DNA of 64,000 nucleotides from Candidatus Fermentithermobacillaceae bacterium (GTDB taxonomy: Bacteria; Bacillota; Sulfobacillia; Fermentithermobacillales; DUSS01). How positions within the stretch are numbered: position 1 is the stretch's first letter; every line of letters begins with the position of its first letter. Shown one piece after another: positions 22,615 to 53,036 of the stretch. A model generated the notes under the pieces. That model did no database searches. It was not told where the DNA came from and saw nothing but the letters and a program-made list of their open reading frames with translations. The position numbers and the translations under genes are program-made. The stretch covers positions 68,571 to 132,570 of the forward strand of contig JADBKE010000007.1 in NCBI GenBank assembly GCA_014896535.1. The letters are read 5' to 3'.

Positions 22615-24090
22615 TCACGAGATTTTTGCGTCGCTTTGCGCCAGTGCCATTTCCGCAAGGAGTGCATATTCCAGCCTCATTTTCATGAGCTCGCAGCCCA
22701 ACGCGTAAGGTATTGAGATATCTCCGTTAAACTCGTAGGCGCTGGCATGACAACCTCCGCCGCAGTAGAACCGCGCCCAGCACGAGGCGCACACGTCCTT
22801 GGAATATACGTGGGTCCCTGCGAACCGCCTCCGGAGAGCCTCGCCCTTTCCGGGGTCAATGCCGGAAAACACATCGCCCATTTTGAACTCCCCGTGTCCG
22901 GCAAAGCGGTGGCACGGATAAAGGTCACCGGAAGGCGCCACGGCAAAGTATTCAACCCCGGCCCCGCAGCCGGTCAGGCGCTTGTACACGCAAGGGCCGC
23001 CGTCCGAAGGCACTATGAAGTGGTAGAAAGAAAACCGGCGGCCGGTCCGGGCGGAGCGCACGTAGAACGCAAACAGCTTTTCGTACTCCCGCCGGAGCCG
23101 CTCGAGGTCTTCCTGACGGATGGCGTAAGGAGCTTCCTCGCCCGCTATCACCGGTTCCATGGAGATCTTGTCGAATCCCAGATTCACCAGGTGCTCGACG
23201 TCGGAGGCGAAGTCGAGAGACTGGCGGGTAAAGGTCCCGCGAACCCAGTAGTCGTTGAATCGTAAGGGCGACCCCGTATCGCTCGCCGGTCGTTTCTGCC
23301 CGTCGGAACCGAACTCCGGCTCGCCGAGGACATACCGTTTGTACTTCGCCAAAACCGCCTGGTAGGTGCCGCCTCCGCCGGGAAACACCCGCATTTCGTC
23401 GTGGACCCCGGGCCTGCCGTCCATGCTCAAAATCACGGACACACGGTGGTCTAACAGCAACCGGACGATTTCGTCGTTGAGGAGGATGCCGTTGGTGGTC
23501 AGCGTGAACTTGATTGTCTTTCCCGCGGCTCGGGCTTTCTCCTCCCCGTAAAGGATTGCATCTTTGACGACGTCGAAGACTAAAAGGGGCTCGCCCCCGA
23601 AGAAGTCCACCTCGCACCGGGAGCGCTTCCCCAGCCCGGCGAAGAGGAAATCGAGACTCCGGCGGGCCACCTCCGGGGACATCTTGGACCGATCGATGCG
23701 CCCGCCCTTGGCGAAGCAGTACCTGCAGCGCAGATTGCAGTCGTTGGTTACGAGGAGGCAGAGGGCTTTGACGTGATCGGGCTCCGGGGGTATGTAGCTT
23801 AAACCGACCGGGTCCGGCCTGGCAAACCTCCCGGTGCGCCGGAGTTCCTCGAGCTCGGCGATAGCTTCTTCAACGTCACTTACGTCGTAACGCGTGGACA
23901 GCGCAGAGAGCGCTTCTTCCTGGTTGGTGCCATCATATACATCCAGAAGGTCCCAGGTTATCTCATCTATGCTGTACAGGGACCCGGTGTTGACGTCTAG
24001 GAGCGCCCGAAGACCCCCGGCCCTGAATTTATGCCAGTCCTTTTTCAAAAAAGCGGTCCCAGCCCGGGATCCCGGAAGTTGCGTGCCCAT
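22615..24090 (-). CDS. scfB: SCIFF (ranthipeptide) radical SAM/SPASM maturase
   Basis: CNLRCRYC radical SAM motif, FFGGEP, C-terminal SPASM Cys clusters; sits immediately downstream of a SCIFF peptide gene. Confidence 0.8.
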   Translation of the reverse strand: MGTQLPGSRAGTAFLKKDWHKFRAGGLRALLDVNTGSLYSIDEITWDLLDVYDGTNQEEALSALSTRYDVSDVEEAIAELEELRRTGRFARPDPVGLSYIPPEPDHVKALCLLVTNDCNLRCRYCFAKGGRIDRSKMSPEVARRSLDFLFAGLGKRSRCEVDFFGGEPLLVFDVVKDAILYGEEKARAAGKTIKFTLTTNGILLNDEIVRLLLDHRVSVILSMDGRPGVHDEMRVFPGGGGTYQAVLAKYKRYVLGEPEFGSDGQKRPASDTGSPLRFNDYWVRGTFTRQSLDFASDVEHLVNLGFDKISMEPVIAGEEAPYAIRQEDLERLRREYEKLFAFYVRSARTGRRFSFYHFIVPSDGGPCVYKRLTGCGAGVEYFAVAPSGDLYPCHRFAGHGEFKMGDVFSGIDPGKGEALRRRFAGTHVYSKDVCASCWARFYCGGGCHASAYEFNGDISIPYALGCELMKMRLEYALLAEMALAQSDAKIS

Positions 24091-24108
24091 CGTGACCTTC
24101 TCCGGCCT

Positions 24109-24264
24109 CTATCTTCTTCGCGAAGTGGTCTTGTTCACGCACTCCTGGTTGGATACGGTGCACGAAGTTTTGCAAGCCGATTGGCAAGACGCCTGGCACT
24201 CACCGCATCCCCTGTTTTCGATTTGGTCGAGTTCTCCCTTAACCACCAGCTGGATGTGCTTCAT
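24109..24264 (-). CDS. scfA: SCIFF ranthipeptide precursor (six cysteines in forty-five residues family)
   Basis: MKHIQLVVKGELDQIENRGCGECQASCQSACKTSCTVSNQECVNKTTSRRR; SD GAAAGGGG upstream of ATG 24264. Confidence 0.8.
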   Translation of the reverse strand: MKHIQLVVKGELDQIENRGCGECQASCQSACKTSCTVSNQECVNKTTSRRR

Positions 24265-37657: not shown

Positions 37658-38364
37658 TTAGTAAGGAAACTGCTCGACCGCGCTGCGTATGCCACCTAAG
37701 AAAGCACGTAAAATCACGGCATCTTGAGGCCGACAGTGAGAAACTAGTAGGCCCGCGGAACTCCGCATGATGGTGCCCCAGGCCCGCGCAGCACCCGCCA
37801 GTCTGGACGCCCAAGACTGACCAGACAGCCGGGATTCGTCAATACATCTTCGCGTAGTACTTTGTATCATGGGGTGCCAGGAGAACCGTTTCTGCGACAT
37901 GCTGATGCTCGAACGCATCATCTGGACCCACTTGTCGCGCCTATCGTAATAACTCGGTAGGACCCCGCCGAAAGGCACCTTATACAGCGACTCCAAATCG
38001 TGCGCCTCTGAACCCTCGACGCCGTCCCCGAATTGCCAGCCGTTCACCCCGTGAACACAGGCTTCCGGCCACCACCCGTCGAGGATGCTCAGGTTTAACA
38101 CACCGTTCATAGCAGCTTTCATACCTGAGGTGCCGCAGGCCTCGAGAGGACGCCCGGGGGTTATTGAGCCAAACATCCGAACCCCTGGTCATGAGCCGGC
38201 CGATTTTCATGTCGTAGTTCTCGAGGAAGACCACGCTCTTTGGGATACTTCGGGGCGTAGCGAACCAGATTTGCAACTAGCTCCTTGCCCGTATCGTCCT
38301 GCGGGTGCGCCTTTCCGGAAAAGAACATCTGAATACGCCCGTCTTCCGGGTAAGGTTCAATCAC
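37658..38364 (-). pseudogene. glgP: alpha-glucan (glycogen) phosphorylase C-terminal remnant, >=2 frameshifts
   Basis: three consecutive minus-frame pieces: QMFFSGKAHPQDDTGKELV.. / VVFLENYDMKIGRLMTRGSDVWLNNP.. / ..EACGTSGMKAAMNGVLNLSILDGWW..; N-terminal ~500 aa absent. Confidence 0.6.
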
Positions 38365-38437
38365 CTCCGACCCCGTATGTCAACGGCGACTCTCACGCCC
38401 GTGTCCCCCGGTTGCCGAAAAGCAGAACCCGTCAACT

Positions 38438-38686
38438 GGGTGCCGCTTCTCAGTGCCCGGCGATGAGAGCGGCGGTGCTCAATTCCGGTAGCCAGCATTA
38501 TCACCGCCGCCTCGCCGGCTCATTTGGGAGTCACGGTCCCTTAGTCGCCCTCGGTTTCGGAAGCGTTTATTTCCCGAGCGTCCTCATATTCTCCGCTGTC
38601 CTGTGCAAGCACCGTTCCGTTAATCGACTCATTTTGGAATTCCATTAAACCTCAGTTAGAAGCAGATTAAACCTGAGCTTAAGGAT
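38438..38686. repeat. diverged copy A of PepSY-3'end / response-regulator-promoter junction (PepSY body deleted)
   Basis: ~85-100% identity to 45556-45729 plus 46344-46403; identical cores tatttcccgagcgtcctcatattctccgctgtcctgtgc and actcattttggaattccattaaacctcagttagaagcagattaaac. Confidence 0.6.
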
Positions 38687-38691
38687 CGGCT

Positions 38692-39054
38692 ATGGCGAGA
38701 ATCCAAGCTATGACCGGTCCCGAACAGGCGCACGGCGACTATAACCATGTAGATCTTGACGACCCGGAGTTAATAGGGTCGGCGGATGACGGCAGGATAT
38801 TAGTGCAAATCGCCGCTCCGGACGGGCGGGTATTGAACGCTTCAGGGACTTTGAGAGGCACCCTCCTGCCCCCAGGATACGTTGGTCCCCCAGTGCTGTC
38901 AGAAGTGAATGGACAACCAATGATCATCGCAGGAGAACGACTGGCCGGCGGGGCGCTGGTTCAGGTGGCCCGACCCGTGGGAAGGGAGAGAGCGTTTCTC
39001 AGGATGCTGGCCGGGGTTATTTCATACTCGTCCCGCTTCTGTTCGCTTGACTGA
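38692..39054 (+). pseudogene. decayed response-regulator receiver-like ORF (paralog of the fragment at 46447)
   Basis: begins right after repeat copy A; HGDYNHVDLDDPE / DGRILVQIAAPDG weakly parallel to NHEGYHVEIARDG / DLVLLD..PG of OmpR-type receivers; acidic pocket lost. Confidence 0.3.
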
Positions 39055-39340
39055 TAGACGCATATGCCCTTGATAGCCTCGGCCTGGAAAACGGGGTGCT
39101 GCTCCTCGAGAAAAACAAGGTCCAGCCTCAGAGGTTTGAAGAGCTCTTCCAACTCGTTGTAAAGTCTCGCGTAAAAGGAAGGACGCTCTGAGGGTCCGGG
39201 AAGAGGACCGTCGGTTACCACGCCCACGTCGATATCGCTCAGGGGGTCATCCTCCACCACTTTTTCCCCAGCGAGGATCTTAACCCCCGTGCAGGCGCGG
39301 GAACCGAACAGGTATACCAGCGAGAACCCCAGTCTGTATG
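38961..39340 (-). pseudogene. MNT-type nucleotidyltransferase (HEPN/MNT antitoxin-like), N-terminally truncated, no HEPN partner
   Basis: ...LVYLFGSRACTGVKILAGEKVVEDDPLSDIDVGVV (GS-x-DxD motif); frame bounded by a TGA only 10 codons upstream of the GS motif with no start codon. Confidence 0.5.
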
Positions 39341-39523
39341 CGCATCACAAGAGTGACCCGCAAAGTATGGCTGCCCGACAAGTACGGAAGCGTACCGCCG
39401 TATGTAGTTGACACCAACTTTCTCGTAAACGAGGACAGCCGGACCATAGGTAAGCTCTACGGTTGGTTGTCCGAGGAGCGCGCCCCCAAGCAGATAGTTA
39501 CCAGGGCTGCTCGGTTGTGCAGG

Positions 39524-41554
39524 TTAAGCGCCCTCAGTTTGAACGCTTACCGGTGAACCGTACTCGGTTCGGGCAGTTAGCGGTGGACCATGTCCTGTTC
39601 CGGCAGTCGCCGGCGAAGCAGTCTCCAGCTCGAGTAATTCCACGTCTTTTCTGAGATCACGTAGGTCCCAGCGCCGCTTCTGGTACACCGTGAACGCGCA
39701 GTTGTCCCAGTACCGAGATTCCTGAAGATCTCCTTGCTGTTCAAGGAGCTTCGAAAGCCACAGAGCAGCGCAGGCGGAGTCCCGTTCATCGCCGCTCTTA
39801 CGGAAATAATCAAAAGCCTGCCTTGCGCAGGAAATGGCTTGCCTCAGTTTGTTTTGCTGCTTGAAAATGGATGACCGGGTCAAACGAATCCAGCCGATTT
39901 CGTTATGGTTCCTTTCATTGAGGATCTGCTCAGCCTTCCTGAGCAAGGTCTCAGCTTCTTCCAGTTCACCCATTCTAGCATAGATCTTGGCGAGCTCCAC
40001 CTGGGTGTAGGCTATATTAGGATGGGCTGGGTTGTCGACATATGGACCCGCGCCCTTCTCGATGTGCTCCTTGGCTTCTTGTAACCGGCCCTCGCGGTAA
40101 AGGATCATCCCCAGGTTATTATGGGCAGCAGCCCGGTGAGCTTCTGTGGCATGTTCGTCCTGCAAAACACTGAGGAACCTCTGTTTAGCTGCAACCCACT
40201 TACGTTTTCGAAGATGGATGATTCCCGTAAGTAGCTCGTAATTGCACCGCAAGAATCCGATCCTGGGGTCTGCCGAATCTTGCCCCGAGAACCAATCCTC
40301 CAGTTTGGCACACTGTTGCTCGGCAGCATCCAGTCTTGTCAGTTCGATCAAACATGAGATGCTTGAGCAAAGGAGAGCCCCGTAGGTGTATGATCGTGCT
40401 AAGTGTTGTTCCTTAAGGCCCTGACGGTACCAGCGAAGAGCACCTACTGGATCTCTATCGAAGAATGCGTGTCCCATCCGAAGGCACACTTCGGCAGTCA
40501 AATCGGCAGTCAGATCGGATAGCCGGTCCTCGGTGGCGCAGCTCAGGGCAAGCGACCCGAGGGCTCTGGCGGCATCGCCCTCACCTGCCAATACCATACA
40601 GCGTGCGGCCTCACACAGGAGAATCGCCTCCTCACGACGGTTCTCGATCATACGACGGAGCAGAGCGGCTCTATGCCATGCATCTGCTGCATCAGTGAAC
40701 AAGCCGTCCTTCTCGAATAGCCGGGCAGCATGCTCAAATCGAAACGATGCTTGGTCTATGAGGCCCGCACGGAGGAGGCACCGGGCCAGCCTTAGTTGAA
40801 AAAATGGGCCCGAATCTGGATACATCTCCATGGCCCTGGCAAGGGTTAGGTACATTGCTTTAATCTTGTCTTGAGTGTAGACACAACTCAATGGGAACTG
40901 AGGAGCGGCTGCGCTCAGGTTTACGCGATATCCGTCGGTGCTTTCCGCTAGAGTGATCAGGCCCCGAGCTTGAAGATTTGAGGCTAGCTCGATAAACGCT
41001 TGCTCCGTAAGGTTCGCTGTGGCAAGCACCCACTCGCTTCTCGCGTGCGGGCCAGCAATGTGGCACACTGCAAGAAGTCTCTTTTCGGGTTCCTCCAGGG
41101 CAACTGTATCCGCGATCACCATCGAACTGTGGGATTGGAGTTCCTTGATAACAGTAGCCAGGAAGTTCCGCACTGTGCGCGCTTCCGCATCGTTCAGCAT
41201 GCCTGTTGTTAGGTAAAAAGGTGCCCTAAAATCGTGGCCGCGAATTAGGTCCAGAAAAGTATCGATAACTTGACGAAGTCTCATGCGGTCCCGATCTTGC
41301 AGTGAGGGCTGCGTCCGATCGGTTTCCCACGTAGATAACTCGGGCAGTTCTTCAGAGTACAGCACAGACAACGGGACCCCCAGAAACGAGGCGATCCGAT
41401 CCTTCATGTCGTCGCTAAGCCCTTTGGCCCCGTTCAGTACCAGTGAAAGATGCGAAGCGGAAATCTGCGTTCCTTTGGCCAGGTCCTTCAGTCGAAGGCC
41501 TCTCATCTCGAGGAATGCTTTCACGTTACGGGAAAAGAGCGCTTGTGACGGCAT
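39524..41554 (-). CDS. HTH-XRE / TPR transcriptional regulator (RNPP/PlcR-Rap-NprR-like architecture, 676 aa)
   Basis: N-terminal HTH_XRE (LRLKDLAKGTQISASHLSLVLNGAKGLSDDMKDRIASFLGV), then ~550 aa of TPR-like helical repeats; SD AGGAGG 8 nt before ATG. Confidence 0.75.
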   Translation of the reverse strand: MPSQALFSRNVKAFLEMRGLRLKDLAKGTQISASHLSLVLNGAKGLSDDMKDRIASFLGVPLSVLYSEELPELSTWETDRTQPSLQDRDRMRLRQVIDTFLDLIRGHDFRAPFYLTTGMLNDAEARTVRNFLATVIKELQSHSSMVIADTVALEEPEKRLLAVCHIAGPHARSEWVLATANLTEQAFIELASNLQARGLITLAESTDGYRVNLSAAAPQFPLSCVYTQDKIKAMYLTLARAMEMYPDSGPFFQLRLARCLLRAGLIDQASFRFEHAARLFEKDGLFTDAADAWHRAALLRRMIENRREEAILLCEAARCMVLAGEGDAARALGSLALSCATEDRLSDLTADLTAEVCLRMGHAFFDRDPVGALRWYRQGLKEQHLARSYTYGALLCSSISCLIELTRLDAAEQQCAKLEDWFSGQDSADPRIGFLRCNYELLTGIIHLRKRKWVAAKQRFLSVLQDEHATEAHRAAAHNNLGMILYREGRLQEAKEHIEKGAGPYVDNPAHPNIAYTQVELAKIYARMGELEEAETLLRKAEQILNERNHNEIGWIRLTRSSIFKQQNKLRQAISCARQAFDYFRKSGDERDSACAALWLSKLLEQQGDLQESRYWDNCAFTVYQKRRWDLRDLRKDVELLELETASPATAGTGHGPPLTARTEYGSPVSVQTEGA

Positions 41555-41620
41555 GAGTGATTCCTCCTGGAAAAGGCCTGTTCGTCTTCCGTACGCTACG
41601 CTTACATTTGCGGTACCTGC

Positions 41621-41878
41621 TCAGCTTCTACGATCCTGGTTCCCCCGATCGACGGGTGTAGGGCATCCCCTCCAATAGGGGGCTTCGGAGGCATCTGCGG
41701 ACCGTGGCGGACAACGTGGGGGGGGGTTCTCCCTACTGCCGATATCGATTAGGAGTCCAGATGGGCACGACCAGACCGTGTCCGTACCCGAAAAGGCAGA
41801 CCATCCCACGAACCAGAAGACCGTCAGCCACACCACTAAAGTCATAAAGAAGGATTTTGTAGTACGACTTAGCCTCAC
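41621..41878 (-). CDS. small secreted/membrane protein (85 aa) upstream of and co-oriented with the RNPP-like regulator
   Basis: GTG start with strong SD GGGGAGGTG (7-nt spacer). N-terminal hydrophobic segment MTLVVWLTVFWFVGWSAFSG, then a polar tail with 3 Cys (..WSCPSG..PPPRCPP..WRGCP..). Confidence 0.45.
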   Translation of the reverse strand: MRLSRTTKSFFMTLVVWLTVFWFVGWSAFSGTDTVWSCPSGLLIDIGSRENPPPRCPPRSADASEAPYWRGCPTPVDRGNQDRRS

Positions 41879-42282
41879 ATCTGGCCACCTCCCCTGTTAT
41901 CTGTTCTTTAACCGCCCATTGCTTTCCTTCTCAGGAAAGTAGGATACTGGAGCATAGCGCAGGAGAGATACCTCTACCTTGCTTGTTTGCCGTAAGAATA
42001 GTTTTTGACGGCGAACATATACATGGCGCAGCCGTATCAACGGTCCCAGTGCTCGGGAATTTGCCGGTAAGCGACTCGGACCTCGGACACACGTGCCAGG
42101 GAGTTCATCCAATATCCCGCGTTTTACCCCCGGTGAACCACATGAAACGTGGAAGCACCAAGCAGCTTGATCCAGGCCGACTAGCCTTGTACTGTCTGAA
42201 TTGGGGACTTCATCTGGAGTTGCCGCATGCTGAAAGGAGGGCTTCGCACGAAACCAGGCTAGACTCGAAGGAGGTGAGAAAT

Positions 42283-43494
42283 GTGTTCAAAGTGGAAAAG
42301 GTGAGTCTCCCAGCTTCCACGGGTCTGATCCGCCTACTCGCTGACGGAAAATGGTGCGGCTCGGGGTGTGGCGACGGTTGCGGCAGGGGGTGCGGATTGG
42401 AATGCTACAACTGATGGAAGCATCTGGCAGACTCCCTGAATTCATCGCGCAGCGTGGCAACGCGACTTTCGATGACGCCTGAATCGGCGGTAGCTATAGC
42501 TCGAGCCTGTGTTGAGAAAATAGGAGGGCCCGACTTCTACATGTTTTTCGGCGGCGAACCCACCATGAACATTGCAGCAATCAACCGGGTATTTGACGCG
42601 CTCGGCGGAGACAACGCTCCACAGTTGTTTGGAATTGTGACTAATGGCACCTTTTCGCGGAAGGAAATTCAGCACCTTCTCGAAACCCACAAGATGACCC
42701 TGACATTCAGCATCGATGGTCCCCAGGACATACACGACTTTCTGAGACCCTACAGCGATGGGCGCGGCTCGTTCAATACCGTCCTAGATAACTTACGGTG
42801 GGCTCAGCAGTTCACTAGAGTAGGCGTTGAAGCTACTTTCACACCAGATCATATAAAACGTGGGTACTCTCTTGTAGACCTGATCGAGTTCTTTCATAGC
42901 ATCGGGATAGACGGGCCTCATATCGTGCCAGTAGCACCCAGGAATGGTTACCGCGGGTTCGAGCCCGATATCCTAATACGCGAGTACAAACAAGCTATTG
43001 ACTATTGTCTACAGTCATTTGTCGAGGGCCGTCCCCGCTGGTACACGCTCCTAGTGAACATTCTCGGCGCTTTTGCCGACGGTCGCAAGCGCGAGTACCT
43101 TTGTCCTGCAGGTGTTTCGACCCTCTGCGTCGATTCCAATGGAGACCTTCATCCGTGCTTTATGTTTGTGGGTGCAGCGGAATTCCTGCTAGGGAACATT
43201 TTCCATCTCGACAAATCCGATTTTGAAAAACGAAGAGACACCTTTATCCGGGCCGCACGCAAGTCCAACCGCAGTAATTGCAGTTCTTGCTGGGCCTCTA
43301 ACATATGCGGCGGCTGTATGGGAAGTGCTTTCTGGGCGACCGGGTGCCTTACAGACAATGACCCCGCATGGTGTGAGCTCCAGAGGCAGACCATTGCGTA
43401 CGCTGCACAGAGGCTTTCCAAACTCCACAGCGATCAAGCAGCCTGGCAATGTTTCGTGGACACACTCACAAAGGCAACAAACGACGTCGAATGA
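42283..43494 (+). pseudogene. radical SAM/SPASM maturase, SCIFF-maturase paralog, with in-frame TGA at the third Cys codon of CX3CX2C (42412-42414)
   Basis: track ORFs 41983..42414 and 42454..43494 share one frame separated only by that TGA. Strong SD GAAGGAGGTGA 8 nt before GTG 42283, and no SD before 42454. Joined N-terminus STGLIRLLADGKWCGSGCGDGCGRGCGLECYN[TGA]WKHL..SMTPE..FFGGEP aligns with the SCIFF maturase N-terminal region (CNLRCRYC...KMSPE...FFGGEP); C-terminal SPASM region also parallels SCIFF maturase (C.AGV..GDL.PC..F.G..EF....CxSCWA..CGGGC). Confidence 0.7.
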
Positions 43495-43515
43495 GAACGG
43501 GAGGTAGTGATTCCT

Positions 43516-45162
43516 ATGATCGCTAATTTTGCATGGATGTTCCCTTTGATGCGCAGATATCGTGTACTGACGGCTGTGGTGATAGGGATAGGGGTATTTC
43601 ACTGTGTGGCGCGTATGGGCTATCCCTGGGCTCAGAAGGTCTTCATAGACTCGGTAATCATGCCGAAACGAGCCGACTTGCTACCCGCAGCAGCAGCCCT
43701 GTTTGTCGCGACTGCAGTACTTGAGATCGGGGCAATGCTTCTCAATACATACATCTCGACCCTTTACTCGCAGAAGATATTGCTCTCGCTCAGAGAGGAG
43801 ATATACGGGAAGTACCGGGCCAGTAGTTACGTAACGCAAACCCGAGTTGAGCCTGGTAAGGTAGTATCACTGATGCTATCGGACGCCTCATCTGTGAGCG
43901 AGACTTTTAATGAGGTTATTCCCGAGCTGGCTGGTACGCTTGGAACATTAATCGTATACACGGCGGTGCTAGTTGCCCTGAATTACCGCCTTTTCCTGAT
44001 AGCACTGCTATTCCTACCCATTTATCTGCTCGGCCCAAGGCGATTCTCCCCGGTCCTGTACGGCCGCGGCCAGCAGGTACAGTCTGCGATAGAGGGTCTG
44101 AACTCGGTTCTCCAAGACGATTTAGCCAGGACCACTGACGTGTACGCAGTGGGGGCCAGAAACTGGTCGGTGGCACGTGTCCTTCAAGCCGCAAAGCAGG
44201 TGATGTCCGCGGTCAAGAAGCAAGCAATAGCTCTCCAGTTGCTGGGTTCATCAGTATTCGGTTCACTCATCATCTCCCAGGTCACCCTGCTCGTGGTTGG
44301 CGGCTACTTCGTGATCAACGGTACGATGCAGCTCGGACTCCTTCTTGCTTACGTGTCTTACACATCAGGGTTCTTCAATGCCTGCAAAGAGGTTTTCAGG
44401 GTGTCCGCAAGTCTTGCTGGACCTAAGGCGGCTTGGGACCGGATAACCGAGTTTTTGAAGACACTAGATCCAATCCCTAGTGAAGGTGAGCCGGCGGAGT
44501 TGACCGTACCGTCAGTGCTCCTCGAGGGCATCACTTTTGGGTACCAGCCGGACTCGCCTGTTATCCATGAGGTAAGCTTATCCGCTGACAGAGGTTCTAC
44601 ACTTTGTATTGTGGGTGCGAGTGGTTCAGGTAAAAGCACCGTTCTCCAGATAATCGCCGGATTCTTAAAGCCGTGGCGAGGAGTGTGCAGGGTGTTTGGG
44701 CACGAGACTTCCGGACTACATCCCGACGAACTCAGAGGCGCGGTGTCGTATGTGGTGCCGAATCCCCGAATGTTCCACGCCAGTCTGAAGGAGAACATCC
44801 TTCTCGGCAGAGAAGTCCGTCCTGAAGGTCTCGCCGCGGCCTGTGAAGTATCCGGAGTGAACGAGTTCGTAAAGGAACTGCCCGACGGTCTTGATACTGT
44901 GCTTGGGGACAAAGGTTACGGGCTGAGTTTGGGTCAACAGCAGCGAGTGGGTCTGGCGAGGGCTCTGGTTGGCAGGCCGAAGATTCTCGTTCTAGATGAA
45001 GCACTCTCGGGTGTGCATCCGCCGTTAGCAAGCCAGATCCTGACGCGCCTCAAAGAGTTCCAGCGGGATGGCATAATCATCCTCGCGACACACCGGGCGG
45101 ATACTATAGCCCACGCAGATCGAGTCGTTAACCTGGAGAATGGGAGATGCGTTGGGCCGTAA
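43516..45162 (+). CDS. ABC transporter, fused permease/ATP-binding protein (peptide-exporter type)
   Basis: 6-TM N-domain; Walker A GASGSGKST, signature LSLGQQQR, Walker B ILVLDEA; start set at ATG 43516 (SD GGGAGG). Confidence 0.8.
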   Translation: MIANFAWMFPLMRRYRVLTAVVIGIGVFHCVARMGYPWAQKVFIDSVIMPKRADLLPAAAALFVATAVLEIGAMLLNTYISTLYSQKILLSLREEIYGKYRASSYVTQTRVEPGKVVSLMLSDASSVSETFNEVIPELAGTLGTLIVYTAVLVALNYRLFLIALLFLPIYLLGPRRFSPVLYGRGQQVQSAIEGLNSVLQDDLARTTDVYAVGARNWSVARVLQAAKQVMSAVKKQAIALQLLGSSVFGSLIISQVTLLVVGGYFVINGTMQLGLLLAYVSYTSGFFNACKEVFRVSASLAGPKAAWDRITEFLKTLDPIPSEGEPAELTVPSVLLEGITFGYQPDSPVIHEVSLSADRGSTLCIVGASGSGKSTVLQIIAGFLKPWRGVCRVFGHETSGLHPDELRGAVSYVVPNPRMFHASLKENILLGREVRPEGLAAACEVSGVNEFVKELPDGLDTVLGDKGYGLSLGQQQRVGLARALVGRPKILVLDEALSGVHPPLASQILTRLKEFQRDGIIILATHRADTIAHADRVVNLENGRCVGP

Positions 45163-45555
45163 CACTTGAGGTCTGTCTGAGGTAAGGCGCGCCGAGTCCC
45201 CGTAGGTGTTAGGGAACCGGAAGCGCCTTAGCTTTCCGCCGACCAGCTCTGTACCCTCGCAGTAGCCCTGATACGCGTCAAAAGCAACGTAGTGCACTGG
45301 ATCACCCCTGCGAACCCTGGGGGCACGGACGGAGTTGTGCGACATCCACCTATCCGGGCTCGTGCCCACCGGGCGGGTCGTTGGGGACAGCTTCTTCGTG
45401 TCACGAAAAGTTATCTCAATCCGAGACAAGGTGCTCGTGCATCTACCCTATCGTTGTTCCTTTTTCAACCTCGGCCTGTACGGCAGAAGTAACCACTTTC
45501 GCAGCAACCTTGGCAGCATGCCCGGAAATAATGGTCGAGCGGCACCTGCTTACGA

Positions 45556-45729
45556 GGTGCCGCTTTTCACTAGCTGGCGGTGAGGGCCGCGATCCTCTGT
45601 CGTGGCATCCAGCATTACCACCGCCGGGTCATTTGGGAGACGGTCGTCTAATCGCCTTCAGTTTCGGAACCGCCTATTTCCCGAGCGTCCTCATATTCTC
45701 CGCTGTCCTGTGCGAGCACCGTTCCGTTA
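45556..45729. repeat. diverged copy B (part 1) of PepSY-3'end junction
   Basis: homologous to 38438-38622; here continuous with the intact PepSY gene. Confidence 0.6.
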
Positions 45730-46169
45730 CCCGCATCAACCTTGACGTCCACGGTCCCCGTCGACGTCTTTATTTCGACGCTGTATACCACGTTACCGTT
45801 TTCATTATCGAGAGAAACCTTGACGACCTGTCCCGGCACCGCCTTCAGGGCGCTCGCAGTAGCTTGTTCGGGGGTGATTTTCGCCAGTTGCTGCAAGGAC
45901 CTGCTTTCGGTCGCTTCGTCGTCCTGATTATCGTCTTCTGCGGTATCCTGCGGGTTCGGCACGCGGATAGAGGCTGTGTACGACGGGTTTTGGGCTTCAT
46001 GCTGTCCCTGTGCTGGAGCAGCGTTTTGGGTTGCCGGTTGCGTAACCCCTGCTGCCTGGCCTACCCCATTTGCCGCCTTTGCCGTCTGAGCGTTGTACAC
46101 GCCCAGACCGGCGAGTCCCCCAAGTGTCAGCATCCCCAAGACCAAGCAGGCTATCAGTTTCTTGCTCAT
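45648..46169 (-). CDS. secreted PepSY-domain protein
   Basis: signal peptide (MSKKLIACLVLGMLTLGGLAGLGVYNA), low-complexity linker, C-terminal PepSY fold (..VVYSVEIKTSTGTVDVKVDAGNGTVL..). Confidence 0.7.
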   Translation of the reverse strand: MSKKLIACLVLGMLTLGGLAGLGVYNAQTAKAANGVGQAAGVTQPATQNAAPAQGQHEAQNPSYTASIRVPNPQDTAEDDNQDDEATESRSLQQLAKITPEQATASALKAVPGQVVKVSLDNENGNVVYSVEIKTSTGTVDVKVDAGNGTVLAQDSGEYEDAREIGGSETEGD

Positions 46170-46343
46170 TTGAAGTACCTCCTGTCAACTGCGGTTAGGC
46201 TGGAATTCTTCTGATTGACTTATCCCTGTTCGCCAACATCAACCGTCTCTTGACACTTCATCTCCGGTACAGAGCTAGTCACCCCCTTCGCGCTGGGTTT
46301 CGAGAAGCCACAGCCGTTTCCGGCTCAGTAGGCAATCTACTCG

Positions 46344-46403
46344 ACTCATTTTGGAATTCCATTAAACCTCAGTTAGAAGCAGATTAAACTTGAGCTTAAG
46401 GAT
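46344..46403. repeat. diverged copy B (part 2): PepSY upstream / response-regulator promoter segment
   Basis: 59/60 identity to 38627-38686. Confidence 0.6.
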
Positions 46404-46446: not shown

Positions 46447-46575
46447 ATGGAAACAAACGCCAAGCCTCGCATTCTCGTGGTTGAAGATGAGGCCAGCCTG
46501 GCCCGTTTCCTTCAACTGGAACTGAATCACGAGGGTTACCATGTAGAGATAGCCCGAGACGGATGTGAAGCTCAC
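46447..46575 (+). pseudogene. OmpR-family response regulator, N-terminal ~42 codons only
   Basis: METNAKPRILVVEDEASLARFLQLELNHEGYHVEIARDGCEA then loss of receiver similarity; the convergent TPR gene begins at 46592. Confidence 0.5.
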
Positions 46576-46591
46576 AACCGAAGAGCTCAGA

Positions 46592-47665
46592 CTAACTCCC
46601 CTCTACAGCCCTGCGCGCCCACGCAAGGGCTTCGGCTATGTCTTTGTAGGGAACGCGATGAGCCCTGTCGTCGGGGTTTCTCAGGATCATGGCTTTCTGG
46701 AACTCTTCCATTGCCAGTAGGACATCACCCTGACTGCGCGCCCAGACGCCCATCCAGTAATGAGCGTCAGGGTTTCTCGGAGCAGACTTGAGGGCTTTTT
46801 GAAAATGAAATCCGGCCTGCTTATGTTCCGCCTGGGCCATGTAAACGGCGCCCAGTCCGATGTGGGCCTCGGCTAGAGTCGGAAGGTCTTCGAGAACCTT
46901 TTGATAGGCGGACGCAGCGGCCTCAAGTTCCCCCTTGGCCGCGAGGACTTCCCCCAGGGCCATCGAAGCTAGGGGGCCGTCACTTGTGAGCTCCTGACAC
47001 CGGATGGCTTCCGCTAGAGCTTCTTCGTGACGACCAAGCCGGGACAAAATTCTGGCGAGGAGGTAGTGCGCGTGCGGGTCCGAAGGCGTTCTTTTGAGAC
47101 CCTCTTCGAGAAGTCTCGCCGACTCAGGAAGATCGCCCTCTCCCCAGGCGAGGCTTGCCAGTGCCATGTACGCTGCTTCGGTAGCTTTTCCGGTATCCAC
47201 CGCCCTCCTGTAGCGGAGGTTAGCTTTGTCGTAGTCGTGCCATAGCCACCTGTCGAGGAAACCGGCGTGTTCGAGAAGGATTTCGCGCCAGATGAACCAT
47301 CCCAACAATACCCAGACGAAAAGGGCCAGGAGAACGAACCTTCCGTCAAGGCCTTTCCATATGTAAGCAGCCCAACCTCCGAGCACAATGATGAGAAAAC
47401 CGGCATTCCACGGATGCCTCCACGAAAATCTGACGGGCTCTCGCAAGAAACGTACACCCCCCAAAGCCTTGGCAGCTGTTCCCGATGGCCCCGGTGGCAA
47501 AGGGCACCTGTACCCCGAGGCGCATATCCCGCAAAGAAGGATTCCCCGGATCACCTTGCTTGCTTCACATTTTGAGGCCTCTGCGGATGAAACCGCGCGG
47601 AAGACCTTTCGGGCGGCAACAGACTCAGGTCCAGCCGGCGTACACCGAACGGGCACCTCGCTCAT
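46592..47665 (-). CDS. TPR-repeat membrane protein
   Basis: two N-terminal TM helices then >=6 TPR repeats (..AHYLLARILSRLGRHEEALAEAIR..). Confidence 0.55.
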   Translation of the reverse strand: MSEVPVRCTPAGPESVAARKVFRAVSSAEASKCEASKVIRGILLCGICASGYRCPLPPGPSGTAAKALGGVRFLREPVRFSWRHPWNAGFLIIVLGGWAAYIWKGLDGRFVLLALFVWVLLGWFIWREILLEHAGFLDRWLWHDYDKANLRYRRAVDTGKATEAAYMALASLAWGEGDLPESARLLEEGLKRTPSDPHAHYLLARILSRLGRHEEALAEAIRCQELTSDGPLASMALGEVLAAKGELEAAASAYQKVLEDLPTLAEAHIGLGAVYMAQAEHKQAGFHFQKALKSAPRNPDAHYWMGVWARSQGDVLLAMEEFQKAMILRNPDDRAHRVPYKDIAEALAWARRAVEGS

Positions 47666-47890
47666 TCGCCGGCGTTATTCTGTGGACGCGGTTGCACTTG
47701 ACTACCAGGTTCTGGTATATTGTGATCGCCGGTGGCAACAAGGGCCTATCAAGAGATGAAATCAACACTTGCCGTCTTTGGCAATCAGGCTCACGCCCGG
47801 AGTAGCAACAAGGGCCTGTTGAAATACGAAACCAAAACACGCCCCCGCATCTGGTCAGCCAGGAAAGGATTTTTCCGGCAACGAGCACGG

Positions 47891-49549
47891 ATGCCCTCTG
47901 CTCGAGCCCGTCTCCCGAGCGTTTTTGTGCTCGCGCTGCTTGTGTTCTTCCAGACGCTCGTCGCCCAAGCGGGTCCTGGTCTCGGCGCCCGTGCGCAGAG
48001 CTCCGCCCCATACGCTGCCGCCGGCGCTGTTACTTCCCTCGCAGCTTCGGCCCCGGGCGCCGCGACCAATGATCCCTGGTACCGGGACCTCGCTGGTCAC
48101 TGGGCCCGTCCCTACGTCCGCGTCTTATGGGAAGAGGAGGTTGCCGACGGCTACGTTTACCCTTCCGGCCGGTCGTATTTTTGGCCCAACAGGCTGTGTG
48201 ATAGGGCGCAATTCCTCCTATTGCTGGCCAAAGCATTTCAGCTCGAACCTTTTGAACCGCCCGTCCCCTCTTATCCGGACGTAGGCCCTTCGTTTACGAT
48301 CCTGAACGGCAAGAAGATTTGGGCGTACGTAGAAGCATGCGTCCGGGCTGGAATTAGTTTCGTCCCCCCAGGACGGAATCTCTTCCCCAACGCCGAGGTT
48401 ACCAGGGAAGACGCCGTGGAGTTTCTCGTGAGATGCCTGGACTTGTGGCCGATGGCTCAGCTCATCCCGGAGGACGAAGCCAGGCGAATCCTTTCGAGGT
48501 TTACCGATGGTCATACGACTTCACGAGAACGGCTCAAAAGCATGGCACTGTCCGTGCGTCTGGGCATCGTTCAAGGCTGCGGCGACGGTACCCTGCAACC
48601 GCGGCGGCCGATGATGAGGTGCGAGATGGCCACCATTGTATACAAAAGCTGCCTGGTGAGGGCCCAGGCGCACCCCCCGTGGTTTTCGCCGGACGGAGAT
48701 GGGGTCGACGAGACCGTCGAGTTCGAATTCACGTGGCTCAAAAACCGGAACATCGTCTCGTGGAACGGCGGGATAACGGATGCCACAGGCCAGACCGTGT
48801 TCACCTTCAACCCGGGTCAAGCCCCGGGGCCGCCTCCCCGTAGGTCGGCGTGGGGCGGGACGGACTCCTCGGGACGACCCCTGCCCGCGGGACAGTACTT
48901 TTACCAGCTCTGGGTGAAGGACAGATTGGGAAACCAGTTCTTCTCGGTCAGGAAGCCCCTGTACCTGGTCAAACACTTTCTAACGGCGCGTCTTCATCCC
49001 GAAATTGCAGCCGACGGTGACACCGTATTTGTCCTGGCCGAAACCAGGCCCGCCGCGCTGGCCGTAACGGCGACTTTTATCTGCGGTCGTACGGTGCCCC
49101 TGGAATCCGCGCCCGGCGCGCAATCGTGGACCGCTACGCTGGAAATGGGTCCGTGGCTTCCCGTGGGAAAACAGCCGGTTGAAGTTCGTGCGGTTTTCCC
49201 AGGCGCTGTCAGGGAAGAAACGCTGTATCTGACAAGGCTCGATCCGCTGACCATCACAGCCGAAGTGAGACCGAATCCGGCGTCACGCGGTCAGACCGTG
49301 TTGCTTCTGGCTTACACCGGGACGGGAGTTGAAGCCGTGACCGCCACGCTTTTTGGAGAAACGATTGCGATGCGCCCGGATGGCCCGACACGGTGGTTAG
49401 GAGAATCCAAGGTACCGATCACGGCGCCTGTCGGTCCCAACGACGTGCTCTTTTCCGCGTTCGCGGACGGGCGTAGGAAGGATTGTATCGTCATTCTGAC
49501 GGTCGAGGAATCTCCCCTCGTCAATCTCACGTTCATCCTGAGCGAATGA
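47891..49549 (+). CDS. cell-surface protein with three S-layer-homology (SLH) repeats and C-terminal Ig-like (FlgD-Ig-like) domains
   Basis: signal peptide MPSARARLPSVFVLALLVFFQTLVAQA at ATG 47891; three SLH-like units; FlgD-Ig-like segment (..GQYFYQLWVKD..). SLH and FlgD-Ig assignments from memory. Confidence 0.6.
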   Translation: MPSARARLPSVFVLALLVFFQTLVAQAGPGLGARAQSSAPYAAAGAVTSLAASAPGAATNDPWYRDLAGHWARPYVRVLWEEEVADGYVYPSGRSYFWPNRLCDRAQFLLLLAKAFQLEPFEPPVPSYPDVGPSFTILNGKKIWAYVEACVRAGISFVPPGRNLFPNAEVTREDAVEFLVRCLDLWPMAQLIPEDEARRILSRFTDGHTTSRERLKSMALSVRLGIVQGCGDGTLQPRRPMMRCEMATIVYKSCLVRAQAHPPWFSPDGDGVDETVEFEFTWLKNRNIVSWNGGITDATGQTVFTFNPGQAPGPPPRRSAWGGTDSSGRPLPAGQYFYQLWVKDRLGNQFFSVRKPLYLVKHFLTARLHPEIAADGDTVFVLAETRPAALAVTATFICGRTVPLESAPGAQSWTATLEMGPWLPVGKQPVEVRAVFPGAVREETLYLTRLDPLTITAEVRPNPASRGQTVLLLAYTGTGVEAVTATLFGETIAMRPDGPTRWLGESKVPITAPVGPNDVLFSAFADGRRKDCIVILTVEESPLVNLTFILSE

Positions 49550-49572
49550 GCTGTCGCACTTAACGAATGCTC

Positions 49573-50517
49573 TCATCGGGGAATACCCTCATCGGGGAGC
49601 TCCAACGTAACGGGGCCGAACTCACCCTTCCGAAAGCGGGCCAGGTAAAGCTGGGCAGCTCGGGTCAGGTCAACTTCTCCGCCTTTCTTGACCTGACCCG
49701 TTTCCCTTCCGAATTGTTCCAGGAAAAGGAGGGCCGGCTTCGGTGGCGGCCCGGCCGCGTCCTGCAACACCGTTGGCTCGCCGGTGAGCAGTTCGCGGCT
49801 ATCCCCGGAGCGTACCGGCTCCGCCGCCTCCAGGTCGGCTGAAAAACTCGCCCTAAAACCGAACTCGTCAGGCACCCCACCTGGCTTAGCCGGAGCCAGC
49901 CGCTCTATCAGCCAGAGAGCCACTTCCAGCGGGTCGTACCTGGCCTCCGGAATCGCACCGGTGGCAGCTAGGGCCATCAAGGTATCTCCTTTGACCGCGC
50001 CGGGCTCAAGCACACCGGGGGTGTCCAGGAGAAGGAATTCTTCCCCGCACCGTATCCAGTGGATTCCTCGGGTGAGACCGGGCTTTGCGCCGGCGGGTGC
50101 TCTCACCCTGCCGACAAGCCGGTTGATGATGGAGGATTTCCCCACGTTGGGTAAGCCAAAAACCATCAGTTTGAGGGGCCTTTCGAGCGTGCCTGGAGGT
50201 CTCGTCCGGTTCAGCCTTTCCCGTTCGCTCCTGAGGAAGGCGAGGAGCTCTTTCATGCCCTCGCCCGTATTGGCCTGCACGCCAAAGGCTGGCTTCCCCT
50301 CACTTTCCAGGGCGGCAATCCAGCTCCTGGTGGCTGCGGGGTCGGCCAGGTCGGTCCTGGTGAGGACGTAAACGAATTTTCTGGGAGAAAGGTACTTCCT
50401 GGCCACCCGTATCGAAGTCCTCGGTATCCGGGCATCCAGGGCAAACAAGATTACGTCGACGACGGAGAGGAAGGTCCTCCTCCCCGGTGTCATCAAAGGA
50501 TTTCCCCGCCGCTTCAT
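49573..50517 (-). CDS. rbgA: ribosome biogenesis GTPase A (YlqF/RbgA)
   Basis: circularly permuted GTPase motifs (DARIP, FGLPNVGKSSIINRL, DTPG); conserved position next to lepB/rplS. Confidence 0.8.
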   Translation of the reverse strand: MKRRGNPLMTPGRRTFLSVVDVILFALDARIPRTSIRVARKYLSPRKFVYVLTRTDLADPAATRSWIAALESEGKPAFGVQANTGEGMKELLAFLRSERERLNRTRPPGTLERPLKLMVFGLPNVGKSSIINRLVGRVRAPAGAKPGLTRGIHWIRCGEEFLLLDTPGVLEPGAVKGDTLMALAATGAIPEARYDPLEVALWLIERLAPAKPGGVPDEFGFRASFSADLEAAEPVRSGDSRELLTGEPTVLQDAAGPPPKPALLFLEQFGRETGQVKKGGEVDLTRAAQLYLARFRKGEFGPVTLELPDEGIPR

Positions 50518-51080
50518 CGGATAACCCCGGCGAACTTAAACGGCCAGATTACAATGGACGCCCTTCCTTTGATGAGACGGAGCTCCACGGGGCCGAAGCT
50601 CCTAGAGTCCTCGCTGTTCTGCCTGTTGTCGCCCATGACGAAAACGGTCCCGGGCGGGACCACAAAACTTGACATGCTGAACAGACCGGGGTGGAAGACG
50701 TAAGGCTCCTCGACGAGCTGGCCGTTCCGGTAAACTCTCCCCGTGCGGATTTCTATGACGTCCCCCTCGATTCCGATAACCCGCTTGATGTAATCCTTGG
50801 ACGGGTCAAGGGGGTACCTGAATACGATTACGTCCCCGCGTTTGGGTTTGGAAAAGCGATAGGCGAGCTTGTTCACCAGCAATCGCTCGCCGTCTTTTAG
50901 GGTGGGCATCATAGATGGCCCCTGCACCACATAGGTCTCGACGACAAAAGTTCGTATGAAGATGGCCAGGATGAGGGCCACTACTACGATACTTACGACA
51001 TCCTTCAGGAACTCCACTCTCGTTTTCTCCTTGCGGGGTGAGCCCCGGTTGTCGAGACTACTTTTGCCGCTTTTCCTCAA
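50514..51080 (-). CDS. lepB: signal peptidase I
   Basis: catalytic Ser/Lys boxes ([32 protein letters not shown]). Confidence 0.85.
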
Positions 51081-51405
51081 TGCGGGATTCTTTACCCGAC
51101 AGCCCTCTCAAATAGAACAGTTTCGCCCTGCGCACCCGGCCCCTCCTCAAGACCTCGATCCGGTCGATCCTCGGAGAATGCACGGGAAAAGTCCTCTCGA
51201 CCCCGACTCCGTACGAGACCCTTCGCACCGTAAAGGTTTCCCGGACTCCGCCGCGCTGACGTGCGATAACGGTGCCCTCAAAAGGCTGAATACGTTCGCG
51301 GCCTCCTTCGATTACCTTGTAGTGCACCCTGACGTAATCACCTGGCCTGAAGTCGGGGATATCTTCCCTCATGCCTTCCCGCTCCACAAGGCTCACGAGA
51401 TCCAT
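51058..51405 (-). CDS. rplS: 50S ribosomal protein L19
   Basis: [50 protein letters not shown]...; start set at ATG 51405. Confidence 0.9.
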
Positions 51406-51441
51406 TGCCATCACCCTTTCCACTTGAACGCTCTGATTCTA

Positions 51442-52293
51442 TCATTTCACACCGGGTTGCGCGCCTCTGCCGGACGCGTTTGTTCCCAAATCGTCGCCGG
51501 CGTCCGCCTCCCAGGCTATCTCCAGAAGCAACTCCCTGTCCTCCGGTGTAAGTACGGCTTTCTCCAGAAGATCCGGTCTTCTCTCGAGAGTGCGCTTGAG
51601 CGACTGCTTCCGCCGCCATCGCCGAATCTTTTCGTGGTCCCCGGACAGCAGGATTTCCGGCACCTTCATACCCCTATACTCGGCGGGCCGAGTGTACTGG
51701 GGCCCCTCCAGGAGACCGTCGGCAAACGATTCGCTTCTGGGCGACTGGTCGCTTCCGAGCACCCCCGGAACGTATCTGGCCACCGCATCCAGTACCACCA
51801 TGGCTGGGATTTCCCCGCCCGTCAGCACGTAATCGCCGATGGATATCTCCCGGTCGGCGAGGTACCTCACGCGCTCGTCGAACCCCTCGTAATGTCCGCA
51901 AATGAGCACGAGATTGGAAATTCCGGCAAGTTCCCGGGCCATCCGGTCGCAGAAAGTCTCGCCCTGGGGAGTCAGAAGGCAAATGTACGGTGCATCTGGA
52001 GACCCTGAACTCGCGATTTCCTCCTTCACAGCATCGACCGCCTCGTAGATGGGTTCGGGCTTCATCACCATACCCGGACCGCCTCCGTACGGGTAGTCAT
52101 CGGCCGTTTTGTGAGCGTCGTGGGTGAAATCCCTTATGTCCACCAGCTTCACCCGGATGACTCCCCGTTCGATGGCCCTGCCGAGAATGCTTGCTCCCAG
52201 TACTCCTGAGAACATCTGGGGAAATAGAGTGAGGATGTAGACGTTCACGCTACCCGCCCTCTTTTCCCCGATTTCCTTCCAGGCCTCCCGCAT
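51442..52293 (-). CDS. trmD: tRNA (guanine37-N1)-methyltransferase
   Basis: SPOUT/TrmD motifs (LICGHYEGFDERV, GDYVLTGGEIPAMV); probable N-terminal over-extension in the track ORF. Confidence 0.85.
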   Translation of the reverse strand: MREAWKEIGEKRAGSVNVYILTLFPQMFSGVLGASILGRAIERGVIRVKLVDIRDFTHDAHKTADDYPYGGGPGMVMKPEPIYEAVDAVKEEIASSGSPDAPYICLLTPQGETFCDRMARELAGISNLVLICGHYEGFDERVRYLADREISIGDYVLTGGEIPAMVVLDAVARYVPGVLGSDQSPRSESFADGLLEGPQYTRPAEYRGMKVPEILLSGDHEKIRRWRRKQSLKRTLERRPDLLEKAVLTPEDRELLLEIAWEADAGDDLGTNASGRGAQPGVK

Positions 52294-52753
52294 CCTGAGT
52301 TGCGGGGTCTTGTGCTGCGCCGGGCTCCCCTTGCGGTCGCATCTTGCGACCCAGGTCTACGCTGAACGACCGCCCGTCCCTGACGGCCAGGACGACACCG
52401 TCCTCTATCACTATTTCGGCGGCCAAGACTTCAGGCCAGATGTCCCCGGGCTTCACCTCGACCAGTCCCTGGACCTGCCCTCTCACCACTTCCTGCCCGA
52501 TTTCAAGACCGGCGATGTCCTCGAGGTTTTTGATGAGGCTCTGCCGCCTCGAAGCCTTGTCCGCCCTTTCTTTTTCCAGCCGGGCTACGGCTTCGCCTTT
52601 AGCTCCCAGGGCCCGGCGCCTGGCGAGCTCTTCCTCGATGGCCCGGAGCTCCAGGTCGAGCCTGCGAATCTCTTCTTGAATATCGCGGGCAAGCTCTTCC
52701 TTGAGTCCAGGCGTTACCCTGGACTTGACGGTGACAGACCTGAATAACAGCAT
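52250..52753 (-). CDS. rimM: 16S rRNA processing protein RimM
   Basis: RimM N-terminal barrel and PRC-barrel C-terminus; conserved position between the KH gene and trmD. Confidence 0.8.
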   Translation of the reverse strand: MLLFRSVTVKSRVTPGLKEELARDIQEEIRRLDLELRAIEEELARRRALGAKGEAVARLEKERADKASRRQSLIKNLEDIAGLEIGQEVVRGQVQGLVEVKPGDIWPEVLAAEIVIEDGVVLAVRDGRSFSVDLGRKMRPQGEPGAAQDPATQDAGGLEGNRGKEGG

Positions 52754-52778
52754 GGGTCACGCGGGCGCACAGCCGCCA

Positions 52779-53012: not shown

Positions 53013-53036
53013 AACCCATCCTCCTCGTTCGTAAGG

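Follow-up and report, generated by a model that had tools for sequence, protein, structure and literature searches.

A probable relic of a rare radical SAM/SPASM RiPP operon with an exporter and a peptide-sensing-type regulator in a Candidatus Fermentithermobacillaceae bacterium

Where is the substrate of a peptide-modifying gene cluster that appears to have none? The question is raised by the cassette at 39524-45162 of a 64,000-nucleotide stretch of DNA (the window) from a Candidatus Fermentithermobacillaceae bacterium (contig JADBKE010000007.1). A sequence-only reading had seen in it the layout of a production and export cluster for a peptide made on the ribosome and modified after translation (RiPP) under quorum-type control, with a regulator divergent from a radical S-adenosylmethionine (SAM) enzyme with a SPASM domain and an ATP-binding cassette (ABC) exporter, and with no recognisable precursor gene. 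Comparison with intact relatives indicates that the cassette is very probably a degenerate version of a small RiPP operon, intact in another Candidatus Fermentithermobacillaceae metagenome-assembled genome, and thus a relic here. What looked like a RiPP cluster without a substrate would then have a commonplace cause, a deletion after which only one precursor of three and an enzyme without its front end remain. Coordinates are positions in the window unless an L-numbered contig is named, and bit scores are given with curated cutoffs; L001 is contig DUSS01000009.1, which carries the intact operon. The open reading frames (ORFs) and other features of the cassette are as follows.

39142..45846, no strand: island, about 98% identical to L001 (97.8-98.5%)
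39524..41554, minus strand: regulator of 676 aa with XRE-type helix-turn-helix (HTH), winged-helix-like and tetratricopeptide repeat (TPR) domains, intact (HTH_3 27.5 bits, cutoff 23; TPR_12 5.5e-17)
41621..41878, minus strand: small ORF of 85 aa immediately upstream of the regulator, its N-terminus resembling a signal peptide, candidate pro-signalling peptide
41718..41726, no strand: poly-G tract in the small ORF, G9 in the window against G7 in L001, which sets the frame of the ORF tail
42270..42274, plus strand: Shine-Dalgarno sequence GGAGG, 8 nt upstream of the GTG of precursor 1
42283..42414, plus strand: precursor gene 1, 43 aa, from GTG 42283 to TGA 42414, sequence MFKVEKVSLPASTGLIRLLADGKWCGSGCGDGCGRGCGLECYN
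42468..42469: deletion junction, 1054 bp of L001 (9259..10312) absent from the window
42469..43494, plus strand: putative 3' remnant of the radical SAM/SPASM maturase, corresponding to ortholog residues 105-445 (mechanical ORF from GTG 42454)
43507..45162, plus strand: fused permease/ATPase ABC exporter of the type I exporter fold, intact (ABC_membrane and ABC_tran; alternative starts ATG 43516 and 43549)

In a blastn comparison of the island with L001, window positions 39142-42468 match L001 5934-9258 at 98.5% identity and positions 42469-45846 match L001 10313-13693 at 97.8% identity. The junction between them is clean, without microhomology, and lies outside repeated sequence. L001 has, in order, the regulator (P0017, 98% identical to that of the window), three precursors, a full maturase (P0001) and the ABC gene. 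Precursors 2 and 3 lay in the DNA lost from the window, together with maturase codons 1-104, and a point 54 nt past the end of precursor 1 now abuts maturase codon 105. Three ORFs remain whole, those of precursor 1, the regulator and the ABC exporter. Among the explanations considered in the sequence-only reading, the relic is one of two that hold together, and it is borne out by the truncated maturase and the loss of two of the three precursors; the other is the Cys-rich piece as substrate.

The radical SAM/SPASM ORF at 42454-43494 is not a complete maturase. Its alignment to P0001 (445 aa) begins exactly at SMTPES and is 92% identical from there on; P0001 has 104 additional N-terminal residues, including the sequence CNMRCRYC. 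The CX3CX2C motif, which is C85-N-M-R-C89-R-Y-C92 in P0001, is not present in the window ORF, and the remnant covers only positions 27-139 of the Pfam Radical_SAM profile. The N-terminal RiPP recognition element (RRE) is also gone from the window copy, lost in the same deletion. The SPASM region is retained, with 49.2 bits against TIGR04085 (cutoff 27) and the motif CxxCxxxxxCxxxC; the Pfam SPASM model gives 21.1 bits for the remnant against a cutoff of 21.5, and 22.2 bits for P0001. Seven amino-acid changes separate the remnant from P0001, among them Y333H in the nearly invariant GDLYPC motif. Because the substrate-recognition domain and the catalytic-cluster motif have both been deleted, the remnant is, judging from its sequence, a pseudogene and the enzyme is dead. 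It would be unable to bind the SAM-cleaving cluster, and therefore no modified peptide would be expected from the window locus.

The precursor that had seemed to be missing is the 43-aa gene at 42283-42414. In L001, the 1.65 kb between regulator and maturase are 'empty' in the sense that public annotation leaves the peptide genes uncalled; they contain three paralogous small genes. The first, xFKVEKVSLPASTGLIRLLADGKWCGSGCGNGCGRGCGLECYN, is identical to precursor 1 of the window except for D31N; the second is MFRVEKVSLPRASRVGILSGFGCGMRCGRDCGAVCGWGCECKN; the third is xFKVERITLPPGSQISPLAGYVCGIGRCEGHICGFGCVCQN. Three orthologous precursors are found upstream of the maturase of a second lineage (P0002, on contigs L002/L003), with the ABC gene after the maturase, so that the module of precursors, maturase and ABC gene is kept in this lineage too. 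All seven precursor genes from the three lineages have ATG, GTG or TTG immediately before Phe and a Shine-Dalgarno-like GGAGG or GGGGG 6-9 nt before the start codon, and they share the leader consensus MF[KR][VA]E[KR][VI][ST]LP (MFKxEKVxLP type). M1, F2, E5, L9, P10 and G22 never vary among them, nor do the Cys/Gly ladder and the C-terminal Asn. The core is of the CGxG type with a C-terminal C-x-N, and Cys, Gly and the terminal Asn are its only invariant residues; the precursors of the intact operon are 41-43 aa long, with five or six core cysteines. These genes thus have the general features of RiPP precursors, namely a small ORF with a Shine-Dalgarno sequence beside a maturase, a conserved leader, a variable core, and paralogs and orthologs. 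When all six frames of the window were scanned for Cys ladders, precursor 1 and scfA, the SCIFF precursor gene, were the only finds. The two small candidates named in the sequence-only reading, the 85-aa minus-strand ORF and a 7-codon ATG frame at 42281, both exist. The same reading had held that it would be refuted if homologous cassettes carried an adjacent precursor that is simply deleted here, and this turned out half true: two of the three precursors have been deleted and one retained.

The Cys-rich piece and the remnant share a reading frame, parted by a single TGA (42412-42414). This raises the possibility that the piece is the true N-terminus of the maturase, with the TGA standing in for the last Cys in a CX3CX2C motif (C-GLE-C-YN-TGA), either as a selenocysteine codon or as a recent nonsense mutation. 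The spacing from the TGA to GGEP is also like that of radical SAM enzymes, and substitution of Cys for the TGA lets several radical SAM profiles extend their alignment to C37. However, the N-terminus found in the intact ortholog is another, canonical one (CNMRCRYC), and 800 nt upstream of that ortholog the same peptide, ended by the same TGA, has a gene of its own. The six other family genes stand alone, each with its own Shine-Dalgarno sequence and start. The precursor is in frame with the remnant by chance of the deletion, since 1054 mod 3 is 1, and it is because of this shared frame that precursor 1 looked like the Cys-rich N-terminal part of an enzyme. In addition, RNA downstream of the TGA folds no better than shuffled sequences (z -0.56), and neither an Rfam match nor a tRNA was found in the window. 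We therefore give the N-terminus reading almost no credence. A selenocysteine or nonsense reading of TGA 42412 was tried and is refuted by the comparison with L001. Because the same peptide and its paralogs, with their own Shine-Dalgarno sequences and starts, are found upstream of intact maturases, 42283-42414 is best read as a stand-alone precursor gene. The earlier suggestion that the Cys-rich piece might itself be the substrate was thus right as to its role as a precursor and wrong in making it a piece of the enzyme. The precursor core at 42355-42414 is encoded by a 12-nt periodic repeat (TGY GGN NNN GGN) in four copies. Since the deletion, this repeat, now in frame with the remnant, imitates a CX3CX2-TGA radical SAM motif and can mislead annotation pipelines and readers alike.

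The cluster family to which the cassette belongs is very rare. When the read-through sequence (precursor plus remnant) was searched against 5.8 billion clustered proteins, two relatives above 35% identity were found, P0001 and P0002 (463 aa). P0002 is 55% identical to the window query (BLASTP) and 60% identical to P0001 (alignment). Both begin with about 100 residues that are not in the window, including CNMRCRYC or CNLRCRYC, and the ABC gene directly follows the maturase in all three lineages. A profile of the precursor peptides against the same protein set recovered two L002 peptides only, so that in this set the family amounts to two called precursors plus the maturases of two lineages besides that of the window. 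The peptide profile gave 48 pattern matches in JGI metagenomes, none of which was confirmed, and a maturase profile run against GTDB species genomes and metagenomes returned only the known L001 contig and matches of 24% identity. Pfam and NCBIfam scans of all precursors, including peptides of distant relatives, matched no family. The exact ABC protein was looked for in public assemblies without a match. No paper describing the precursor/maturase family was found among the literature searched, and a string search with core motifs (CGFGC and others) was swamped by DNA sequences. The intact relatives define a precursor/maturase family that is not in Pfam or NCBIfam, and the cassette is a new and very rare member of the thioether-type radical SAM/SPASM RiPP operons with an exporter and a peptide-sensing-type regulator.

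At greater distance, maturases 28-34% identical to P0001 adjoin other Cys/Gly-rich precursors with FGCG or GxGC motifs, at loci on L007/L008 (3799-3918 / 246-365), L009-L011 (3297-3890) and L004 (3584-3988). Among the relatives of 28-29% identity, examples of such precursors are ...FGFGCGLGCWGVACAF and ...LCGFSCNNGKVCGFGCY. Some of these clusters lie on contigs from gut samples that also carry relaxase/MobC genes, and they turn up in hundreds of contigs. No distant precursor or maturase reaches an NCBIfam cutoff. There seems to be a wider, unmodelled clade of 'GCG-type' radical SAM RiPPs.

What kind of enzyme has been truncated can be asked of P0001. In its AlphaFold2 (AF2) model (pLDDT 83.5 overall), residues 1-59 form a beta-beta-beta-alpha-alpha-alpha arrangement with pLDDT 86-95, and this predicted fold has RRE topology. 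The best full-length structural match of the model is CteB (5WHY, E 2e-21, TMq 0.72), and a sequence comparison with the PDB likewise puts CteB first (2.7e-30). Among NCBIfam models the PapB model NF047865 scores best (remnant 152.6 bits, P0001 183.8, P0002 178.8; cutoff 340), followed for P0001 by nif11-type, QhpD, ScfB and other models. The ScfB model TIGR03974 gives 95 bits for the remnant and 128 for P0001 (cutoff 425), and the CXXX-repeat model TIGR04115 gives 63-86 bits (cutoff 350). These scores and folds place the maturase in the thioether-forming radical SAM/SPASM clade, outside every curated family. The earlier description of the enzyme as a SCIFF-maturase paralog is thus loosely true, but PapB is the best model, the ScfB scores are far from their cutoff, and P0001 is only 28.5% identical to the ScfB of the window itself.

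That ScfB belongs to a SCIFF pair elsewhere in the window, whose precursor had correctly been placed 18 kb from the cassette:

22615..24090, minus strand: scfB, SCIFF maturase, 491 aa (TIGR03974 489 bits, cutoff 425)
24109..24264, minus strand: scfA, SCIFF precursor, 51 aa (TIGR03973 68.7 bits, cutoff 50)

One proposal had been that the cassette is functional and acts in trans on this SCIFF peptide. The presence of scfA in the window speaks for it, as does the place of the cassette enzyme in the broad thioether-maturase clade of ScfB. However, the remnant has neither the radical SAM Cys motif nor the RRE, scfA has its own intact maturase, to which P0001 bears little identity, and homologous cassettes bring their own, unrelated precursors. 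We regard this as highly improbable. By its sequence, the SCIFF pair (22615-24264) is complete, canonical and independent of the cassette.

The known systems offer several partial likenesses. As in the PapB/PapA (freyrasin) system, a radical SAM/SPASM enzyme is paired here with a core with regularly spaced Cys. However, P0001 scores about half the PapB cutoff, and the PapB model has no counterpart to the 75-aa RRE domain of P0001. According to two reports, PapB joins Cys to Asp/Glu (PMC9413430, PMC12373016). One member of the precursor family, CGVGCGLGCGYGCGAGCYN, has no acidic residue in its core, so links from Cys to Asp/Glu cannot be the conserved modification. In one of these reports there is a precedent for linkage to a C-terminal residue by PapB in vitro (PMC12373016). 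CteB and SCIFF (thermocellin) share with the cassette the RRE, radical SAM and SPASM architecture seen in P0001 and Cys-rich precursors, but the cassette precursors do not match TIGR03973, and the operon here has three precursors in tandem and an ABC exporter of its own. In the sactipeptide StsA, thioethers made by a radical SAM enzyme are placed onto Gly alpha-carbons in a Cys/Gly-patterned core, CxCxCx4GxGxG (PMC10288494). Cys and Gly are likewise conserved in the cassette precursor cores, with Gly as a possible acceptor. In contrast to the cassette, StsB is MftC-like with a separate RRE protein, and its model NF045574 gives only about 52 bits on P0002; the cassette core is an interleaved (CGxG)n rather than a Cys block followed by a Gly block. 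Finally, the core is literally a C-x-x-x repeat (CGSG CGDG CGRG CGLE C), as in the CXXX-repeat system, but the TIGR04115 score of the maturase is low and no NCBIfam precursor model matches the cassette peptides.

The ABC protein is a half-transporter in which a six-helix transmembrane domain (PF00664, 2.1e-22) is fused to a nucleotide-binding domain (PF00005, 8.2e-25). The ABC and radical SAM/SPASM ORFs described in the sequence-only reading are present, and the gap of 21 nt between them is obtained with the start at ATG 43516. The protein is 98% identical to the L001 ABC protein and 60% identical to that of L002, and so co-diverges with the maturase. Its PDB matches are Sav1866 and generic ABCB types. 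Against bacteriocin_ABC (TIGR01193) it covers profile positions 147-687 of 708, with no N-terminal extension, and a C39 peptidase domain is not present. The top NCBIfam matches (MsbA-related, HepA, TAP and NHLM bacteriocin ABC) fall together at about 215-224 bits, a long way under their cutoffs, and neither these nor the PDB matches assigned the protein to peptide or non-peptide exporters.

The regulator was recovered as described in the sequence-only reading, with its XRE-type HTH and TPR repeats. Its AF2 model (pLDDT 82) has an HTH at 1-65, a helical linker, a winged-helix-like H-H-H-E-E domain at 155-213 and a TPR superhelix at 228-640. The combination of an N-terminal XRE-type HTH with C-terminal TPRs is the RNPP-type architecture, although the match to NprR is weak (E 0.0028, TPR region only). 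In a Foldseek comparison generic TPR proteins dominate, and Rap-pLS20 (RappLS20/Phr*) is found at rank 25 (TMt 0.65). Full-length homologs are 34-44% identical. One of them, P0019 (44%), is divergent from a different radical SAM gene, with two Cys-rich precursors and an ABC exporter. In this cluster (L016/L017, 1972-7917) the Cys-rich precursors (..CTVCGTNICAVEICLLEWICWTDCGCETYVPPCTDCRPVE) lie downstream of the maturase. Scans of 41400-42700 for promoter and terminator consensus sequences found nothing.

In all five regulator homologs examined, a gene of 64-68 aa with a signal peptide and a Pro-rich tail lies directly upstream on the same strand (L018 5695-5889; L019 5580-5777; L021 5517-5723; L022 5513-5710; and L016/L017). 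The 85-aa ORF resembles this companion peptide in position and N-terminus, a likeness that would support quorum-type control. The tails of the ORF in the window and in L001 are in two different frames, neither of which is supported by homology. Only a G8 tract gives the tail ..HGPQMPPKPPIGGDALHPS.. with the GP[GQ][ILM]P motif conserved in the homologs, a motif that arises by chance in 0.09% of shuffles. The difference in poly-G length could be phase variation, decay or a homopolymer sequencing error. The L021 homolog likewise appears frameshifted, just past CDPGIPPW.

Quorum-sensing control of radical SAM RiPP (RaS-RiPP) clusters has been described for shp/rgg-controlled clusters (PMC9389541). 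The cassette resembles these and the RNPP systems (NprR, Rap-Phr) in having an HTH and TPR regulator and an adjacent putative gene for a secreted peptide by a radical SAM RiPP operon with an exporter. It is unlike RNPP systems in that the regulator is about twice the RNPP size, with the extra helical linker and winged-helix-like domain, and in that the pro-peptide gene is upstream of the regulator; peptide binding is only predicted here. The conserved pairing of a Bacillota XRE-HTH/TPR regulator of 640-680 aa with a secreted Pro-rich peptide of 64-68 aa points to a possible peptide-signalling module in these bacteria that has not been described. The proposal of a RiPP production and export cluster under quorum-type control thus holds for the intact cassette, as seen in L001, in the module of the second lineage and in the P0019 cluster, and the window copy is a degenerate form of it.

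How the intact operon might work can be sketched from its parts, which would be a divergent XRE-HTH/TPR regulator with its pro-peptide gene, three precursors, a maturase with the CteB-like three-domain build of RRE, radical SAM and SPASM, and the ABC exporter. The N-terminal RRE would bind the MFKxEKVxLP leader, and the radical SAM core would abstract hydrogen from acceptor carbons and make several intramolecular thioethers from the five or six core Cys. The only conserved candidate acceptors would be Gly and the C-terminal C-x-N. The half-transporter would export the modified product, and the regulator would tie expression to the secreted peptide signal. Because only Cys, Gly and the terminal Asn are conserved in the core, the family lends itself to a clear test of Cys-Gly or C-terminal thioether chemistry within a thermophilic lineage of Bacillota. 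A more far-reaching proposal would have the intact cassette make a structurally new multi-thioether peptide, in which a (CGxG)n Cys ladder is linked to Gly alpha-carbons and/or the C-terminal C-x-N by a maturase outside the curated families, all under a new, double-sized RNPP-like regulator whose Pro-rich pro-peptide is switched by poly-G length (G7, G8 or G9). In its full form we regard this proposal as doubtful.

Several observations weigh against our interpretation of the locus. The maturase scores far below all curated cutoffs, and its reaction could differ from those of the modelled families; the type of cross-link we infer solely from family resemblance. The link between the regulator and such clusters comes from two independent contexts, and other regulator homologs lie among housekeeping genes. 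Against L001, the regulator has a ratio of nonsynonymous to synonymous substitution (dN/dS) of 0.29, the remnant one of 0.33 and the ABC gene one of 0.42, with 15-27 changes each. The value for the remnant (15 changes) is not above those of the intact genes, so that sequence decay gives no independent sign of pseudogenisation; the deletion may be recent, or the counts of changes may be too small to reveal relaxation. The lack of a nonsynonymous excess in the remnant would also be expected if the organism really had the intact three-precursor operon and the deletion came from the assembly or from a minority variant. The rest of the island is 98% identical to the intact copy, and the nearby homopolymer difference (G9 against G7) could hint at trouble with sequence quality. 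However, the clean junction outside repeats makes misassembly by repeat collapse unlikely, and the phosphorylase, response-regulator and nucleotidyltransferase neighbours are also fragmentary, which fits real decay. On balance we think an artefact or minority variant unlikely.

The intact ORFs of precursor 1, the regulator and the ABC gene, with their dN/dS of 0.29-0.42, also suggest a residual module that works without a maturase, in which unmodified precursor 1 would be exported under the regulator as a thiol-rich, metal-binding or signalling peptide. However, the dead remnant has the same dN/dS, so that these values carry little information; the homologous loci offer no precedent without a maturase, and the companion pro-peptide ORF is frameshifted. 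Such a module is in our view very unlikely, and a relic of the intact operon remains the explanation that we favour.

The surroundings of the cassette had been described as a decaying island, which the neighbouring gene fragments fit. They lie among 37658-38366 (minus strand), 39353-39480 (plus), 38961-39260 (minus), 46447-46791 (plus) and 38692-39054 (plus). They include the 3' part of an alpha-glucan phosphorylase gene that is intact in L001 (537 aa), a second phosphorylase-like scrap in opposite orientation, a nucleotidyltransferase fragment that covers profile positions 29-92 only and a response-regulator stub with receiver positions 1-36 only; an additional ORF of 120 aa among these fragments has no assignment. 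The syntenic flanks at 37836-38366 and 46574-54220 (TPR protein, SLH protein, rplS/trmD/ffh region, phosphorylase) are 80-90% identical to L001. This difference, about 98% identity for the island against 80-90% for the flanks, suggests that the island was recently exchanged laterally, or recombined, between two lineages at species level. Direct repeats bracket the cassette, 38533-38686 against 45640-45751 and 46338-46403 (82% and 97% identical). Of the repeat copies, one consists of the 3' end plus the upstream region of a PepSY-domain gene (45648-46169) and the second is a collapsed remnant, which indicates segmental duplication and deletion around the island.

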